A DNA stretch of 64,000 nucleotides from Escherichia phage vB_EcoM_ECO78 (PP526941.1), one strand, 5' to 3'. Counted from the first letter of the stretch, positions 485-57,156 are shown. Numbers and translations: made by a program. Notes: a model not told the origin generated them from the letters alone.

Positions 485-512
485 AAAGTCCTCATGTTAT
501 GTCAGTAAGACT

Positions 513-542
513 ACTATAACACAACACGATGGACTTGTAAAC
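513..542 (-). promoter_or_regulatory. early sigma70-type promoter upstream of alc
   Basis: Minus strand reads GTTTAC-18nt-TATAGT. Spacer AAGTCC is complementary to GGACTT in the alc SD region. Confidence 0.4.
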
Positions 543-9017: not shown

Positions 9018-9245
9018 TTACTGTTCAATAAATCCTGTGTAAAATTCTACATCTTCAGCATCCATACCGTCGCAGTATTCATTAACCATAAACTGTTTAA
9101 GACGATCTAAAGGACCTTCAATAACAACTGAAACATTACAATTAGGATCATTTAGTGCGCTTATGATACTAAGTTCAGGATAACGATTACGAATAATTTC
9201 TTCAATATATTCAAAATCAACAACATCAATATCAATTTTAGCCAT
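9018..9245 (-). CDS. hypothetical protein (frd.3 position)
   Basis: 75 aa acidic ORF downstream of the gene 32 terminator/promoter. Confidence 0.45.
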
Positions 9246-9288
9246 ATTATTTTCCTCTTTAATTATCAGCAGTATTGCCGATAGTTGT

Positions 9289-9318
9289 ATAGTACCACAG
9301 TATGCTTTGGTTGTAAAC
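9289..9318 (-). promoter_or_regulatory. early promoter (GTTTAC-18-TGgTACTAT), part of a 69-bp near-identical repeat
   Basis: Minus strand: A/T-rich UP-like tract, GGTTTAC, 18 nt, TACTAT, then ACAACTATC. Confidence 0.5.
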
Positions 9319-25911: not shown

Positions 25912-26547
25912 TCACAGTTCAGATGCTACGGTGATTACTGCTTCAATGTTTTCTGCCGAGCGTTTAATGTCAAGATACACATTACCGTTTTTAGCGATTT
26001 TACATGACATTCCGATGTCAGTAAATTTCTGAATATGATGTTCCATCATTTTATATCCAAAAATTCGCATATTTCCATTGTTGTTAATTTCAAAATTACG
26101 AATTCCGTGAGTGCGTTTTTCTAAAATAGCGAGATAATTACTACGATAAGTTTCAACCTTTTTAAGAACAAATCCATTTTCATCTAAAAGTTTTAACATG
26201 AAGTCTTTATCTTCTTCCATATCAGAAGTAATCTCACGAGCTTTACGAGTTGCCCGTTTTTTCAGTAATTCTGGAGCATTTTCCTGCGCGTATAAAGTTG
26301 CTGCATTTGAAATAATATCCTGAGCTTCACCAGTAATGATTAATCCATCACCGGATTTCTCCACCAGGCCTTTTTTAATCAATACCCCAATATTACTATT
26401 AACTACTGCGTTACCTAAATCTGGATGCACCTCACGAACTTCTGCAGCTGTAATGAAATCTTTCTTAGCAATAGTAATTAAAATCGCAGCAGTTTTTTCA
26501 TTCAGAACATCGTTAGAAGCTTTGATGATGTAAGTTACTTTAGACAT
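25912..26547 (-). CDS. motA: middle-transcription activator MotA
   Basis: 211 aa, MSKVTYIIKASNDVLNEKTAAILITIAKKDFITAAEVREVHPDLG... Confidence 0.9.
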   Translation of the reverse strand: MSKVTYIIKASNDVLNEKTAAILITIAKKDFITAAEVREVHPDLGNAVVNSNIGVLIKKGLVEKSGDGLIITGEAQDIISNAATLYAQENAPELLKKRATRKAREITSDMEEDKDFMLKLLDENGFVLKKVETYRSNYLAILEKRTHGIRNFEINNNGNMRIFGYKMMEHHIQKFTDIGMSCKIAKNGNVYLDIKRSAENIEAVITVASEL

Positions 26548-26588
26548 TTTCTAATCTCCGTAATTCTGTATCAGTAGTTGATAGTTGT

Positions 26589-26618
26589 ATAGTACCACAG
26601 TATGCTTTGGTTGTAAAC
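26589..26618 (-). promoter_or_regulatory. early promoter of motA; second copy of the 69-bp repeat
   Basis: GGTTTAC-18-TGgTACTAT then ACAACTATCAACTACTGA; A/T-rich upstream tract. Confidence 0.5.
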
Positions 26619-29367: not shown

Positions 29368-29582
29368 TTTACACCATTCCAAATTGTTTCAACCACGGAT
29401 TTTAAACCATTTTGATGAATATCCATTCCGACTACCGCCATCAAATAGATTCCAACTACAACTGAACCTAAGGCAAAAATCAGCATGAAAATGAATAAAG
29501 CTGGAAAAATATTATCGAAAAACCATTCAATAAATGTAAAAGCACTGCGTTTACGCTTCATATTTTCCTCACATAAATCCAA
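29364..29582 (-). CDS. small membrane protein
   Basis: 72 aa with one strongly hydrophobic segment; true start may be internal. Confidence 0.4.
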   Translation of the reverse strand: MDLCEENMKRKRSAFTFIEWFFDNIFPALFIFMLIFALGSVVVGIYLMAVVGMDIHQNGLKSVVETIWNGVK

Positions 29583-29682
29583 AGTAAACGTTTAATACAT
29601 CAATCATTAAAACGATTGGGAATATACTCAAAACTACTAGTATTATAACTACATTCCATATAGCTTTAATAATCTTTTTCAT
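29569..29682 (-). CDS. tiny hydrophobic peptide
   Basis: 37 aa MKKIIKAIWNVVIILVVLSIFPIVLMIDVLNVYFGFM; SD GGAGG; track ORF 29569..29778 is an artefactual extension across the promoter. Confidence 0.4.
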   Translation of the reverse strand: MKKIIKAIWNVVIILVVLSIFPIVLMIDVLNVYFGFM

Positions 29683-29710
29683 TTTCTGTTCCTCCGTAGT
29701 TGATAGGGTA

Positions 29711-29740
29711 ATAGTACCACGGAGGAACAGTCTTGTAAAC
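29711..29740 (-). promoter_or_regulatory. early promoter with 11-bp spacer/SD inverted repeat
   Basis: GTTTAC aagaCTGTTCCTCCGtgg TACTAT ...CGGAGGAACAG aaa ATG; perfect inverted repeat 29686..29696 with 29720..29730. Confidence 0.5.
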
Positions 29741-31080: not shown

Positions 31081-31100
31081 AAAAGGGCCGAAGCCCCTTA
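31081..31100 (-). terminator. rho-independent terminator
   Basis: Minus strand GGGGC-UUCG-GCCC followed by UUUUUGUUUU. Confidence 0.55.
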
Positions 31101-31296: not shown

Positions 31297-31324
31297 AATT
31301 TTCCTTAGTTAAGGGCCGAAGCCC

Positions 31325-32263
31325 TTATTTAAATTGTTCAGTAACGTCTTCAACTACTTCGTATTGGCAGGTACGCATTTTAGCGTCGTTGTAATCAATC
31401 GGAATTGATACTACATCGCGAGGATGTACTTTAACTTTTACAACTCGGCTGGTTGAACTACCAAAGTGACGAATATAAGATTTAGAACACACATGCAGAC
31501 CACGAGAACAAGTTTGTGTATCATCGTCATTCACACGAGTACGTGGCATTTTAACTACTTTACCAGGACTGTTATCAAAGGTATTTGAGTGACAGTCAAA
31601 GTAATTGCTACGAACTACTTTCCAAGCATAGAAGTAACCATCTTCTGTAATTTCAATATCGTTTGCTACCAAGAAATCAAAGAGTCGAGATACCGCTTTT
31701 TGGCTCGGGTTTTCCAGCAGATTTTCCAAGAACGGAAAATAAAATTCAAAGTTTTCGCCTTTTTCCATCGAATCAAGAATACGATCAACTAAACCAGATC
31801 GCAATTCAATATTTTGATAGAACAAGCTTCCACCTTCAATTCGAACATCACCGGAAATATATTTTTCAACAGCGCGGCGAACATTAATTTTTTGTGCCGC
31901 TTCTTCCAATTTATCTGCAACAAGCAGATTAAGAATTTCCTGGAAGTTTGAATGAGTATTAGGAGTTGCGTTATAAGTTACACCGTCAACAGTAATTGAA
32001 ATGAATTTTTTAGATGCATTCCAAATAATGTCAGATTTAGCAACTGGAGCAATAACTACATCGCTATTAACTTTAACCGTAATGTCACCGCTAATAGTAA
32101 CTTTAGGACGTTTAGCTTCTTCAGCATTTTTCAAAACACGGCGGATTGTGTCAACCGATACATCCTTCCAGTAAGCTAATTCCTGCTGGGTGTAATTACC
32201 ACTTGAATACAGTTTGACAATTTCAGCTTGTTCGTTTTTGGTCAGGCATTTAATATTGTACAT
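31325..32263 (-). CDS. rIIB: rIIB membrane-associated protein
   Basis: 312 aa, MYNIKCLTKNEQAEIVKLYSSGNYTQQELAYWKDVSVDTIRRVL... Confidence 0.9.
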   Translation of the reverse strand: MYNIKCLTKNEQAEIVKLYSSGNYTQQELAYWKDVSVDTIRRVLKNAEEAKRPKVTISGDITVKVNSDVVIAPVAKSDIIWNASKKFISITVDGVTYNATPNTHSNFQEILNLLVADKLEEAAQKINVRRAVEKYISGDVRIEGGSLFYQNIELRSGLVDRILDSMEKGENFEFYFPFLENLLENPSQKAVSRLFDFLVANDIEITEDGYFYAWKVVRSNYFDCHSNTFDNSPGKVVKMPRTRVNDDDTQTCSRGLHVCSKSYIRHFGSSTSRVVKVKVHPRDVVSIPIDYNDAKMRTCQYEVVEDVTEQFK

Positions 32264-38060: not shown

Positions 38061-38160
38061 TACAATTTCCTCATTAATTGAACATTGGAGCGATGCGTTT
38101 CAGAAGAGTGACAGCACCTTTGGCAAATTTTCCATTTTATTCTCCAAGTTGTTTTCTGTA

Positions 38161-38201
38161 TCAGTAGTTGATATTGATATAGTACCATAATCAACTACTG
38201 A
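38161..38201. repeat. perfect 12-bp inverted repeat (degenerate early-promoter-like element)
   Basis: tcagtagttgat-N17-atcaactactga; loop contains tatagtacca; no GTTTAC at the expected -35. Confidence 0.7.
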
Positions 38202-38217
38202 TGTATATAGTTTTATG

Positions 38218-38230
38218 AAAAAAAAAAAAA
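38218..38230. repeat. A13 homopolymer tract
   Basis: 13 consecutive A on the plus strand, just 3' of the 165-aa gene stop. Confidence 0.9.
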
Positions 38231-38237
38231 TTAAACT

Positions 38238-39356: not shown

Positions 39357-39869
39357 TTATCTCATTTCAATAAAATCTACAAGTTCAGCATGGGATTTGC
39401 GGAACATTACTTGGTGTCCGCCAATGATAACTTCATCTTCAGGAACTTCATAAATCGCAATGTACATTCCACGATCTTTTAAGTCTTCACGCTCTTCTCG
39501 GGTGAACCATCTCATCATATCATATTCACTAGCGAAAGCAAAATGGTATAATGCAATAAACCGCGATGGAATATACCTTTCAGACGGTGAATAATTTTTA
39601 TCCCATTTAGTTTTAATAACATCATTAGCATTTTCAACTAATAACTTATCATCGTGTGGAATAGGAATACTTTCATGGCTTTCATAATTATCGCTATGAT
39701 GATGAAATGACGATGAATTAATACCGCAAAATTTTAGCCAAGTTCGAGTTTTCATAGAATCAAATCCACGATAAGGAGTTGATTGAACGCATAACTCTTG
39801 CCTAATTTTCACTATACCACTATCATCATTTAATGCGCTAAACGATGATTCAACACGATAAATTTTCAT
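39357..39869 (-). CDS. hypothetical protein
   Basis: Track ORF starts at TTG; ATG at 39869 (MKIYRVESSF...) has SD GAGGA. Confidence 0.45.
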   Translation of the reverse strand: MKIYRVESSFSALNDDSGIVKIRQELCVQSTPYRGFDSMKTRTWLKFCGINSSSFHHHSDNYESHESIPIPHDDKLLVENANDVIKTKWDKNYSPSERYIPSRFIALYHFAFASEYDMMRWFTREEREDLKDRGMYIAIYEVPEDEVIIGGHQVMFRKSHAELVDFIEMR

Positions 39870-39896
39870 TTTATTATCCTCAGTAGCTATGGTGTT

Positions 39897-39926
39897 ATAG
39901 TACCACAACTAACCGAGGAAGTAAAC
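39897..39926 (-). promoter_or_regulatory. early promoter (GTTTAC-18-TACTAT)
   Basis: GTTTAC tTCCTCggttagttgtgg TACTAT; spacer TCCTC complementary to the downstream SD GAGGA. Confidence 0.4.
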
Positions 39927-39932
39927 AACTTT

Positions 39933-40616
39933 TTATCGTTTTGTTGGAAGAGATAGAGGATCGCACTCTTCCTCTGACGGAGCATCTTCAAGACCCATAG
40001 CATACCGCAAAGCATACTTCATCATCAGGATGTCTTTCGCGCAGTCATGAATAGAATCATGTGCAACGAATCCATCTAAAGTTCCCTTTGGAAGAGGACA
40101 TGTAGTCATATCACGAACAAGCAGAAGTGCTTCAATTCTAGTACGAATATCACGTTGATTCCAGAATTTACATGGTTCTAACTTAAATGTGTCAAGTTCA
40201 TTCTCAGAAACGCCGTTAAGACGCTGAATATCGCGAATAAGATCGACTAAAATTGGAAAATCAAATGACATTCCACGGCACCAGCCTTGAGATTTCCAAG
40301 GATCGATGTTATGTGCATTAATGTAATCATTAAATTTTGCAATACCATCGATAGTGCTTACATCTTCATTTGATGGCGCAATATTTTTTCGAGCTTCAGG
40401 AGACTGATTTTTCCACCATTCAATAGTGCTTTTAGTAAAAAGACGATGTCCTTTTTGGCTTTTTAAATCAAACTTGATTTTAATGCCACGTGAAACTAAT
40501 TCATCAAAGGATTCAACTACTTCTGGATTAGGGTCAAAGGCAATAACAGCTAAGTCAATAACAGCTGCTTTTTCACCGCTTCCCATTGTTTCAAAATCTA
40601 TAATAAAATCAAACAT
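39933..40616 (-). CDS. dexA: exonuclease A (DnaQ-like 3'-5' exonuclease)
   Basis: 227 aa, MFDFIIDFETMGSGEKAAVIDLAVIAF... Confidence 0.85.
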   Translation of the reverse strand: MFDFIIDFETMGSGEKAAVIDLAVIAFDPNPEVVESFDELVSRGIKIKFDLKSQKGHRLFTKSTIEWWKNQSPEARKNIAPSNEDVSTIDGIAKFNDYINAHNIDPWKSQGWCRGMSFDFPILVDLIRDIQRLNGVSENELDTFKLEPCKFWNQRDIRTRIEALLLVRDMTTCPLPKGTLDGFVAHDSIHDCAKDILMMKYALRYAMGLEDAPSEEECDPLSLPTKR

Positions 40617-44444: not shown

Positions 44445-45064
44445 TCAACTACCTCAATATCATATACTTTAAATGTTCCAAATGAATCGTGTAATTTTTC
44501 TTTTGAAATAGAAGTTATTTTATATTTTCCAATTGGAATCATCCATTCTTGTTCACGTACAATCATCATTAAGTTATCAGTACGTTCTGAATCTAATCCA
44601 TCAGTATCTTCATATGTATACTTAAACTCAGTATTAGGAGAAGAAAGTATAATATCGCTGATATGGTCAGAATAATTAAAAGCTTTATCAGTTTTTAAGC
44701 GAAATATTATTTCAGTGGAATATTCAACATAAGAAAAACCACATGCTGTGTGCAAACTAGTAGTAAATGAATCTACCCTATTCGTTGAAAACACTTCTCC
44801 GACTTGTAAATCTTTAATGAGTTCTTTTGTCGATTTTGATATACCACGATATAGCTGATAAGGTGATTTAGTTAAATGCTTTTTAACGATTTTATTCAAC
44901 TGCTGATGAAGAGCTTCATTCTTTTTGGCTTCCATACATTGCCAAAGAATTGACTGTTCAAAGTCAGTAAATTTTTCACAAACCTTTTTATACATATCAT
45001 ATTGAAAATCAACGCTTTCAGCTTTTATAGATAACTGTTCAACATCTGCAAGATTAATAATCAT
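44441..45064 (-). CDS. modB: ADP-ribosyltransferase ModB
   Basis: 207 aa paralog of ModA (LYRG, EQEWMIP). Confidence 0.75.
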   Translation of the reverse strand: MIINLADVEQLSIKAESVDFQYDMYKKVCEKFTDFEQSILWQCMEAKKNEALHQQLNKIVKKHLTKSPYQLYRGISKSTKELIKDLQVGEVFSTNRVDSFTTSLHTACGFSYVEYSTEIIFRLKTDKAFNYSDHISDIILSSPNTEFKYTYEDTDGLDSERTDNLMMIVREQEWMIPIGKYKITSISKEKLHDSFGTFKVYDIEVVE

Positions 45065-45090
45065 GATAGCCTCCGTATACTTCAGAAGCT

Positions 45091-45120
45091 ATCATATCAT
45101 TGTTAGGAAGGAAAGTAAAC
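45091..45120 (-). promoter_or_regulatory. early promoter of modB with 8-bp inverted repeat over the start codon
   Basis: GTTTAC-18-TATGAT; ATGATAGC (45088..45095) is complementary to GCTATCAT (45063..45070), which contains the AU of the modB AUG. Confidence 0.45.
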
Positions 45121-50625: not shown

Positions 50626-50880
50626 CTATTTTATTTCCTCAAGTTCGTTAATCAATAAAAGTTCTCTGACGCTAAAAACAAAGAAAAATGTGTTCCCATC
50701 AACCAGAGCATGACCGCTAATAGAACACCCTCTGTGGAATTTAGAAACTTTACAATCTAGAACTGTAAAGGGTTTTAATCCTATGACTTTAGCTGTGCGT
50801 CTATTCAGTTCACAACCACTTGCGAATTTTTCCAAATCTTCTTCTGATTTAAACTGATATTCTCTATTAACTAGCATCAT
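50626..50880 (-). CDS. hypothetical protein (61.4 position)
   Basis: 84 aa. Confidence 0.45.
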   Translation of the reverse strand: MMLVNREYQFKSEEDLEKFASGCELNRRTAKVIGLKPFTVLDCKVSKFHRGCSISGHALVDGNTFFFVFSVRELLLINELEEIK

Positions 50881-50911
50881 TTTCTTTTCTCCGCGATTAG
50901 CTGATAGAATT

Positions 50912-50941
50912 ACTATAACACAACTCTATCAGCTTGTAAAC
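50912..50941 (-). promoter_or_regulatory. early promoter with 8-bp spacer/+1 inverted repeat
   Basis: GTTTAC aaGCTGATAGagttgtgt TATAGT ...CTATCAGC; arms at 50926..50933 and 50900..50907. Confidence 0.45.
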
Positions 50942-51370: not shown

Positions 51371-51428
51371 AACAATCTCCTCATTTAACCAACAAGACTA
51401 CTATACCATAGTCTTGTCAACTTGTAAA

Positions 51429-56846: not shown

Positions 56847-57098
56847 TTAAAACTTAACAAATAATTTTAAAGCATCTTCAGTTTTAATTCCTTTTCTTAC
56901 ACCCATAACAGAAATTGGCTGTGACTGAAATTTTCCTTTGCCATTATAAATTTCTAATCCAGTCACCATTCCATTTTGTTCTATAATACCATAAGTATTA
57001 CCTTCATTTTCGAATTCTTTAACTTTAAAGAGTTTATTAGCTTTTTCTGCATTAACAACTTTTAAATTTTGAATAAAATTAGTTTGAATGTTTTTCAT
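56847..57098 (-). CDS. hypothetical protein
   Basis: 83 aa from ATG at 57098 (MKNIQTNFIQNLKVV...), SD GGAGGAA; track ORF 56847..57281 is an artefactual extension across the promoter. Confidence 0.45.
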   Translation of the reverse strand: MKNIQTNFIQNLKVVNAEKANKLFKVKEFENEGNTYGIIEQNGMVTGLEIYNGKGKFQSQPISVMGVRKGIKTEDALKLFVKF

Positions 57099-57126
57099 TT
57101 TGTGTTCCTCCGTAGTTGATAGTTGT

Positions 57127-57156
57127 ATAGTACCATGGAAGAACAGTCTTGTAAAC
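57127..57156 (-). promoter_or_regulatory. early promoter with spacer/SD inverted repeat
   Basis: GTTTAC aagactGTTCTTCCatgg TACTAT ...GGAGGAAC; arms 57137..57144 and 57104..57111, 8 bp with one G-U. Confidence 0.5.

Follow-up and report, generated by a model that had tools for sequence, protein, structure and literature searches.

The 64,000-nucleotide stretch of Escherichia phage vB_EcoM_ECO78 (PP526941.1) analysed here, called the window below, shares 95-97% identity with many Tequatrovirus genomes; its T4 counterpart runs from ~134 kb through the origin to ~29 kb, and its minus strand carries early genes. A motif scan of that strand identified 18 strong T4-type early promoters of the form GTTTAC-N18-TAnnnT, each followed 19-38 nt downstream by a Shine-Dalgarno (SD) sequence and an ATG. 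We describe a property of several of these promoters: part of the promoter core is complementary to the ribosome-binding site (RBS) of the gene that it drives. The arrangement is illustrated by the promoter at 29740, which precedes a short ndd.4-like open reading frame (ORF) and has the following features, given in window positions.

29735-29740, minus strand: GTTTAC, the -35 of the early promoter that drives the ndd.4-like ORF (motif scan; the same cassette is found in T4 at Pe166807)
29716-29730, minus strand: 5' arm CUGUUCCUCCGUGGU in the promoter spacer, carried by read-through RNA only (15-bp minimum-free-energy helix, z = -4.9)
29711-29716, minus strand: -10 hexamer TACTAT in the hairpin loop, its first T (29716) being the last base of the 5' arm (motif scan)
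29686-29700, minus strand: 3' arm ACUACGGAGGAACAG with the SD GGAGG at 29691-29695 (folding)
29569-29682, minus strand: 37-amino-acid ORF for an ndd.4-like small membrane protein, 97% identical to T4 ndd.4

Judging by promoter geometry, transcription from this promoter probably starts at ~29704.

Read-through RNA is predicted to bury the ribosome-binding site at five early promoters

For each promoter we folded two leaders, a read-through leader that takes in 20 nt before the -35 and runs to 20 nt beyond the ATG, and a promoter-proximal leader beginning at the start site expected from promoter geometry, ~7 nt after the -10. The extra opening energy was defined as the cost of freeing the 17-nt SD-to-AUG segment from pairing in the read-through RNA, less the corresponding cost in the proximal RNA, and z-scores of the read-through leaders were computed against dinucleotide shuffles. 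At 29740 the RBS required an extra 18.0 kcal/mol in the read-through RNA, compared with 1.1 in the proximal RNA. The same behaviour was seen at five of the 18 window promoters (57156, 45120, 39926, 29740 and 542), with 10-18 kcal/mol in the read-through RNA against 1-4 in the proximal one; for the remaining 13 promoters the extra opening energy did not exceed 2.8 kcal/mol. The arms of the other four loci are listed below.

57132-57145, minus strand: 5' arm within the promoter spacer, the cassette being a paralogue of that at 29740; -35 at 57151-57156 (z = -2.9; 11.2 kcal/mol extra opening)
57103-57116, minus strand: 3' arm with the SD GGAGG of an 83-amino-acid ORF, ATG 57096-57098 (folding, 13 bp plus one mismatch)
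45083-45101, minus strand: modB 5' arm, made of the spacer end, the -10 TATGAT (45091-45096) and the discriminator; -35 at 45115-45120 (z = -3.9)
45056-45075, minus strand: modB 3' arm CGGAGGCUAUCAUGAUUAUU over the SD, the AUG (45062-45064) and the first codons (folding; conserved in six genera)
39902-39919, minus strand: motB.2 5' arm in the spacer; -35 at 39921-39926; equivalent of T4 P8.1 (z = -7.5; 12.3 kcal/mol extra opening)
39877-39893, minus strand: motB.2 3' arm including the SD GAGGAU; ATG 39867-39869 (folding, 17-bp helix)
512-537, minus strand: alc 5' arm across the spacer and the -10; -35 at 537-542 (z = -4.2; 10.1 kcal/mol extra opening)
485-507, minus strand: alc 3' arm including the SD GAGGA and adjoining the AUG at 482-484 (folding, 23-bp helix)

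The predicted helices at the five loci are 13-23 bp long and cover the SD, plus the AUG in the case of modB, whose helix comprises 19 bp with one bulge and adds 12.3 kcal/mol of opening energy. Proximal leaders of the examined loci had folding energies of 0 to -4.8 kcal/mol with an open SD, and were if anything less structured than shuffled sequences, whereas the read-through leaders gave z-scores of -2.9 to -7.5. All tested loci have sigma-70 early promoters (GTTTAC-N17/18-TAnnnT) and not late promoters of the gp55 type; that of motB.2 matches by position P8.1, a T4 early promoter that has been used in experiments. In most cases the part complementary to the SD/start region, which follows 20-30 nt downstream, is the spacer immediately 3' of GTTTAC; at modB it is the -10 hexamer with the discriminator.

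The position of the arms determines which RNA can carry them. The 5' arms fall between the -35 and ~+2 of canonical early promoters, and therefore RNA begun at the expected start site of the gene's own promoter cannot contain the 5' arm. On the upstream side, a gap of only 3-15 nt, free of terminators, separates the end of the upstream ORF from the -35 at every SD-burying locus; since no terminator intervenes, RNA coming from upstream must contain both arms.

The locus was brought to our attention by an original prediction, made from the sequence alone, that the spacers of early promoters are inverted repeats of the SD or start region of their own genes. The six repeat pairs that it listed are all present where it placed them, and its -35 and -10 assignments fit the 18 strong promoters. 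The pairs themselves are real, but the 5-11 bp quoted for them fall short of the helices obtained by folding. A pair at 45063 had been said to touch the modB AUG, and the 3' arm indeed covers both SD and AUG. The proposal that the SD is hidden in read-through RNA only was borne out by folding at the five loci, but not at the pair 50900/50926, where the SD stays free. A whole-window repeat search returned mainly AT-rich palindromes and had no discriminating power.

Promoter-leader complementarity exceeds chance in the window and in T4

We compared each promoter with its own leader and with the leaders of the other promoters. In the window, at least 8 kcal/mol of extra opening energy was reached by 5 of 18 own pairs and by 14 of 306 swapped promoter/leader pairs (permutation p ~0.0002). 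The original prediction had counted at least five such promoters, and five do bury the SD, but since 29740 and 57156 are paralogous the independent cases are four. T4 was analysed by assembling its early regions; as the T4 RefSeq record carries no promoter features, promoters were defined by the motif together with an annotated gene start. Ten of 36 T4 early promoters (~28%) reached at least 9 kcal/mol (ndd.4, alc, 30.8, alt.-3, e.8, denV, regB, nrdC.8, modB and motB.2), all others remained at or below 6.1 kcal/mol, and the distribution is bimodal. Of the swapped T4 pairs, 5% reached 8 kcal/mol, and the observed count was not equalled in any of 20,000 permutations. The feature had also been said to occur systematically at early promoters; as it is present at 5 of 18 window promoters and at 10 of 36 T4 promoters, this proved too strong. 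The srd, motB, cef and mrh.2 promoters are unburied in the same genomes, meaning that the trait is gene-specific.

A burial ranking of 219 minus-strand T4 genes, folded with 100 nt of upstream context, placed regB first and alc second, while nrdC.8, modB, motB.2, alt.-3 and ndd.4 ranked alongside 49, e and I-TevI, for which sequestration has been validated experimentally, and segB, where it is implicated. Burial of at least 12 kcal/mol was found for 7 of 35 T4 genes with their own early promoter, compared with 8 of 184 others (Fisher p = 0.004). The T4 starts at 40157 (gene 55), 5595 (39.1), 116428 (26) and 75374 (gene 1) are also among the most buried RBSs; these are neither early-promoter genes nor classical sequestration cases.

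When promoter/leader interaction was considered instead, 19 of 36 T4 promoters showed energies of -7 kcal/mol or below, against 23% of swapped pairs. This interaction energy is also bimodal in T4, and the other half of the promoters pair less than the swapped controls (ranks 27-36 of 36), which looks like an avoidance of pairing.

These figures bear on the possibility that chance complementarity, multiplied by cassette duplication and favoured by pyrimidine-rich spacers opposite purine-rich SDs, accounts for the pattern. Copying did take place, 29740, 57156 and T4 nrdC.8 being copies of a single cassette, and considerable energies arise in swapped pairs with CCUCC spacers too. The permutation tests and the bimodal energies nevertheless contradict such an origin, as do the independent arm sequences at alc, modB, motB.2, regB, denV and 30.8 and the compensatory changes across genera, outside the SD core, that are described below. 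We find it scarcely credible.

Pairing is kept while the arm sequences change

The arms were compared among genera at alc, motB.2 and modB, with orthologous promoters taken from annotated phage records and from a metagenome scan. At alc the 5' arm begins directly after the -35, and the SD is in every case part of the 3' arm, although the sequences differ between genera, with at least six different arm-sequence families in genera other than that of the window. The T4-type arms, AAGTCC...TCGTGTTGTGTTAT with ...ACATAACATGAGGACTT, are replaced in Gelderlandvirus S16 by ATCTCCGTTTAGTT with AACTAAACGGAGAT, and in Moonvirus CF1 and Karamvirus PS49 by TCTCCATTTGGTT with AACCAAATGGAGA, which carry two double compensatory changes relative to S16. 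Jiaodavirus has ATCCTCATCAG with CTGATGAGGAT, and two metagenomic lineages have TTTCTCCA with TGGAGAAA and TCTCCTCAG with CTGAGGAGA. An 8 x 8 energy matrix that crossed alc promoters with alc leaders showed the gene's own promoter burying the RBS most strongly for 6 of 8 leaders, with means of 11.8 kcal/mol for own and 4.8 for cross combinations. In the cross test, the Mosigvirus alc leader pairs with the T4-type spacer (14.3 kcal/mol); its own spacer differs and forms a local AACACC/GGTGTT hairpin, which suggests a replacement of the cassette's promoter half, with loss of the SD hairpin.

The motB.2 arms changed likewise, from TTCCTCGGTTAG with CTACTGAGGA in the T4 type to TTCTCCTCATG with CATGAGGAGAA in Dhakavirus and TTCTCCTCTGGTT with AACCAGAGGAGAA in Mosigvirus. 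For modB, predicted burial of the RBS ranged from 11.6 to 19.9 kcal/mol across six genera. Since the modB 5' arm consists of the -10 and the discriminator, the hexamer itself co-varies, in the sequences compared, with the start-codon context: T4 and Karamvirus have TATGAT facing ATCAT, and VR7 has CATAAT facing ATTATG within a 14-bp helix. A scan of IMG/VR with ModB returned 6 near-identical loci only and was uninformative for covariation.

RNAalifold, run on a MAFFT alignment of alc leaders, missed the long-range helix, whose register is shifted by 1 nt between genera. It was replaced by the own-versus-cross energy matrices and by alignment to a covariance model; we treat the pair count from that model as secondary evidence, below the matrices. 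A model built solely from the alc promoters of S16, CF1 and PS49 also finds the promoters of motB.2, denV, regB, ndd.4, alt.-3 and 30.8. In the model-fitted alignment, which leans to the structure, 91% of the cells are paired, compared with 62% for shuffles and 39-46% when the partner is slid.

As far as predicted pairing goes, alc, motB.2 and modB keep their complementarity with differing arm sequences across six or more genera, and the arms show the compensatory changes among related phages that the original prediction had proposed to look for. A DNA-level operator or other protein-binding site was rejected as a candidate: the arms differ completely between genes and genera, and their complementarity is kept.

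The ndd.4 cassette and its paralogues

The ndd.4 cassette is limited to Tequatrovirus, where it is 92-99% identical among members and occurs at 2-6 places per genome (570 phage records). Among four phages, all four variable positions of its arms (4/4) are C or U facing G, so that pairing is kept; this variation is weak but consistent in its agreement with maintained pairing.

In T4 the annotated ndd.4 start is an upstream in-frame ATG (T4 166762-166764, window 29697-29699), created by a C-to-T change in the 3' arm (CTACGG to CTATGG) and absent from the window phage. Because the window phage lacks it, the real ndd.4 ORF is probably the shorter 37-amino-acid one with the good SD.

Paralogous, shuffled cassettes lie at 29680-29740, 57096-57156, 26547-26618 and 9245-9318 in the window and at Pe27080 and Pe53943 in T4. 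The spacers at 26618 and 9318 are identical and their leaders (26547-26618 and 9245-9318) differ. The 83-amino-acid ORF at 56847-57098 has no T4 counterpart and occupies the place of T4 imm.1, where a 57156-type spacer is joined to another leader and the SD pairing is broken.

Promoter-spanning hairpins and the terminator explanation

A second class of hairpin also spans early promoters and leaves the SD free. Its example in the window, at the 50900/50926 pair, is the following.

50899-50934, minus strand: 14-bp promoter-spanning hairpin with the SD uncovered (SD GGAG 50889-50892; ATG 50878-50880; folding)

The 3' arm of this hairpin ends 7 nt upstream of the SD, and the extra opening energy is -0.8 kcal/mol. 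Hairpins of the second class have the 5' arm in the spacer, the 3' arm in about the first 12 nt of the transcript and the -10 alone in the loop. Besides 50899-50934 they are found in the window in the 51377-51398 region (51429 promoter), at 38160-38202 (~38208 promoter) and at the 8593 promoter, and in T4 at ipI, ipII (14 bp), ipIII, mobD.2 (12 bp), dmd and 30.7. No U run was seen after any of these second-class hairpins. The cef-type promoter at 38208-38235 has a poor -35 (TATACA) after a run of 13 T, and a perfect 12-bp spacer/leader repeat, TCAGTAGTTGAT/ATCAACTACTGA.

Stem-loops in early promoters have been described in the PeSL cassettes of T4-type phages and read as terminators or attenuators and as recombination sites (Arbiol et al. 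2010); in RB49 and phi1 the stem-loop often lies in the stretch separating the -35 from the -10, or over the -10. A later paper extended PeSLs to T4 and PST, drawing them immediately upstream of the promoter and ascribing the ndd.4/ndd.5 exchange to them (Comeau et al. 2014). The loci studied here share with these cassettes a strong early promoter preceded by an AT-rich UP region and followed by SD and start codon, together with a stem-loop, in an intergenic gap directly after the upstream stop, as well as a link to shuffling. As in PeSLs, repeated copies lie in hyperplastic regions such as the ndd region, while alc, modB and motB.2 are single-copy, gene-specific versions. They depart from the PeSL description in the pairing with the SD of the downstream gene, in the covariation of the arms and in the absence of U tails.

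The SD-covering hairpins could thus be of the PeSL type, attenuating or terminating upstream transcription and providing homology for shuffling, with the SD covered incidentally in leaders of only 20-30 nt. In agreement with this, one stem-loop studied by Arbiol et al. cut expression of a downstream lacZ like a strong terminator, and the ndd.4/ndd.5 exchange has been placed in the T4/PST PeSLs; the paralogy of 29740 and 57156, the T4 imm.1 spacer with its different leader and the existence of promoter-spanning hairpins that spare the SD point the same way. The modB hairpin (window 45062-45096), with 14 pairs, a 7-nt loop and the tail AUUAUUAAUC, was scored as terminator-like by a consensus scan; it is the only SD-covering hairpin to match this loose consensus, and it might also attenuate read-through transcription. 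Against such an explanation, no U run follows any SD-covering hairpin, the modB tail included, and the loops measure 15-25 nt, though a plain hairpin could take the short loop of the other class. At alc, motB.2 and modB, moreover, the 3' arm lies on the SD in every hairpin-bearing genus despite complete sequence turnover, and the T4/PST stem-loops of 2014, sitting just upstream of the promoter, are different structures. The two readings are also compatible, as an untranslated cistron would itself invite Rho-dependent termination. We consider the PeSL explanation of the SD-covering hairpins rather unlikely, a terminator role as their second function possible, and the terminator or PeSL reading the more natural one for the second-class hairpins.

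As a general reading, intrinsic terminators were rejected on account of the missing U tails. Elsewhere in the window, GC-rich hairpins with T tails on both strands at 31082-31099 and 31310-31327 (AAGGGGCTTCGGCCCTTT) look like ordinary intrinsic terminators, possibly bidirectional, of the denB/rIIB region.

RegB and upstream ribosomes

The nuclease RegB acts on several of the same SDs. It is inhibited by RNA structure, yet in vivo it cleaves the SDs of regB, motB.2, modB and nrdC.8, and for modB the authors noted a 'similar situation' to that of an RNA which resists cleavage in vitro, presumably owing to structure, but is cleaved in vivo (PMC1702504). We infer that these in vivo and in vitro data fit two RNA populations, one with and one without the 5' arm. 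The hairpins and RegB thus have in common these four SDs and a connection with the end of early protein synthesis. They differ in that RegB is a nuclease acting in trans on accessible SDs, whereas the hairpin is a cis structure that would silence the SD on another transcript population.

RegB also offers another explanation, in which the hairpin shields the GGAG of the SD on the long RNA from RegB and from subsequent RNase E/G decay, so that downstream middle genes are reached while the short early RNAs are destroyed. RegB cleaves GGAG or GGAU in early SDs and is readily blocked by secondary structure, most middle and all late GGAG-bearing transcripts are resistant, and most of the buried SDs contain GGAG or GGAU. 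The SDs of alc and alt.-3, however, are GAGGA, with neither GGAG nor GGAU, and the resistance of the denV SD is due to its 3' context and not to structure (PMC1702504). Protection and silencing would in any case both follow from the same helix, which makes the shield an added benefit rather than an alternative. As an explanation in its own right we judge it quite improbable.

Upstream translation could in principle govern the SD as well. In the coat-replicase coupling of MS2 and Qbeta, an upstream RNA segment pairs with the downstream RBS and access is set by upstream events, as in the present case; there the structure is opened by ribosomes translating upstream, whereas here the switch would be the site of transcription start and the arm lies mostly beyond a terminating ribosome. 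Translational coupling would require that a ribosome at the upstream stop melts the outer pairs and frees the SD in step with the neighbouring gene. The geometry comes closest at alc, where in five genera the rnlA stop lies 2-4 nt before the -35 and the arm begins 8-11 nt past the stop, at the limit of the ribosome footprint. A terminating ribosome covers roughly 10-11 nt 3' of the A site. The arm begins beyond its reach at ndd.4 (~16 nt after the stop), motB.2 (~12 nt) and modB (~30 nt), and helices of 13-23 bp would not be opened by the loss of one or two outer pairs. Coupling is unlikely on this geometry, except perhaps at alc, and as a general explanation we find it very doubtful.

Comparison with sequestration at late promoters

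Regulation of this kind is well established for T4 late genes. The RBSs of e, soc, 49 and I-TevI are sequestered in long transcripts and freed by a proximal late promoter, and sequestration has been proposed for I-TevII/III, segB and Aeh1 mobE, the proximal promoter being late in all of them (PMC3014915). Our predictions place the SD and/or the AUG in a helix in upstream-started RNA, with a shorter proximal RNA that lacks the 5' arm, as for e, soc, 49 and I-TevI; burial is predicted to be of equal size to that of e, 49 and I-TevI in the same calculation. The cases differ in the promoter, which is of the late gp55 type (TATAAATA) in the known systems, where translation is delayed, and of the sigma-70 early type here, with the 5' arm in the spacer or the -10. 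The predicted effect is mirrored: translation would be limited to the first minutes, at about a quarter of the early promoters.

The original prediction had presented the feature as an extension of the late-gene principle, which is indeed known, and had overlooked both the stem-loops already described in early promoters as PeSLs and the separate class of hairpins that spare the SD. What appears to be new is the predicted SD sequestration at early promoters, both the principle itself and the cassette type being already known. The 2010 reviews, a comparative paper of 2006, the PeSL publications and full-text searches yielded no mention of pairing between the SD and an early-promoter arm, of its frequency or of its covariation; earlier remarks on single genes are possible.

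Proposed mechanism and its implications

In the mechanism that we propose, a polymerase arriving from upstream would transcribe the whole promoter, making the 5' arm first and the SD arm 15-25 nt later. The 5' arm would capture the SD as it emerges, and the cistron would stay silent on read-through or polycistronic RNA. RNA from the gene's own promoter would begin past the 5' arm, have an open leader and be translated. Protein output would then track this early promoter, which is shut off 2-3 minutes after infection, and the own-promoter transcripts would subsequently be cut by RegB within the SD. In this way the synthesis of Alc, ModB/ModA, RegB and MotB.2 may be confined to the immediate-early period despite continuing upstream transcription.

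We estimate the probability that translation of a subset of early cistrons is tied to their own early promoter at roughly 0.6. Several observations count against it. The Mosigvirus alc promoter has no SD hairpin, so the feature is dispensable there. Generic CCUCC-GGAGG complementarity accounts for part of the energies, the cross terms having means of 4.8-9.5 kcal/mol, and the excess of double-sided changes (149 cells, 39 expected) comes from an alignment that was itself fitted to the structure. With loops of 15-25 nt the helices fold more slowly, and on occasion a 30S subunit that binds during transcription could get there first. The second-class hairpins, finally, need another function, which could be shared by the SD-covering class.

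ModA is highly toxic, and the alc product also needs tight limitation. ModA, ModB and RegB are early proteins (PMC9697503), and regB production is in need of tight regulation (PMC3014915). The end of early protein synthesis and the shut-off of early promoters have been called 'not completely understood'; the promoters are shut off at 2-3 min and early synthesis then drops sharply (PMC3014915). Mismatches between transcript and protein timing were left unexplained in a 2022 omics study (PMC9697503).

More broadly, a conserved immediate-early subset of genes across the Tevenvirinae (alc, modB/modA, motB.2, regB, denV, ndd.4 and others) might be tagged according to the promoter at which their RNA began. 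Variable promoter bases, those of the modB -10 included, would co-evolve with the RBS, all read-through RNA would be silent, and the hairpin, alongside early-promoter shut-off and RegB, would be the missing cis element in the abrupt stop of early synthesis from genes whose transcription goes on. We hold this wider proposal tentatively, giving it somewhat less than an even chance.

T4 is a reference system for temporal gene control. If translation of these cistrons is indeed tied to their own early promoters, the hairpins would make a simple and testable contribution to early protein shut-off, and they would explain how RegB cuts these SDs in vivo despite its sensitivity to structure. Promoter spacers, and even -10 hexamers, would be shaped by RNA pairing, providing a clear case of a promoter core sequence under joint selection at the DNA and RNA levels. 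Moving or swapping an early promoter would then alter translation of the downstream gene on read-through RNA, which would matter for the annotation and engineering of T4-like therapeutic phages.

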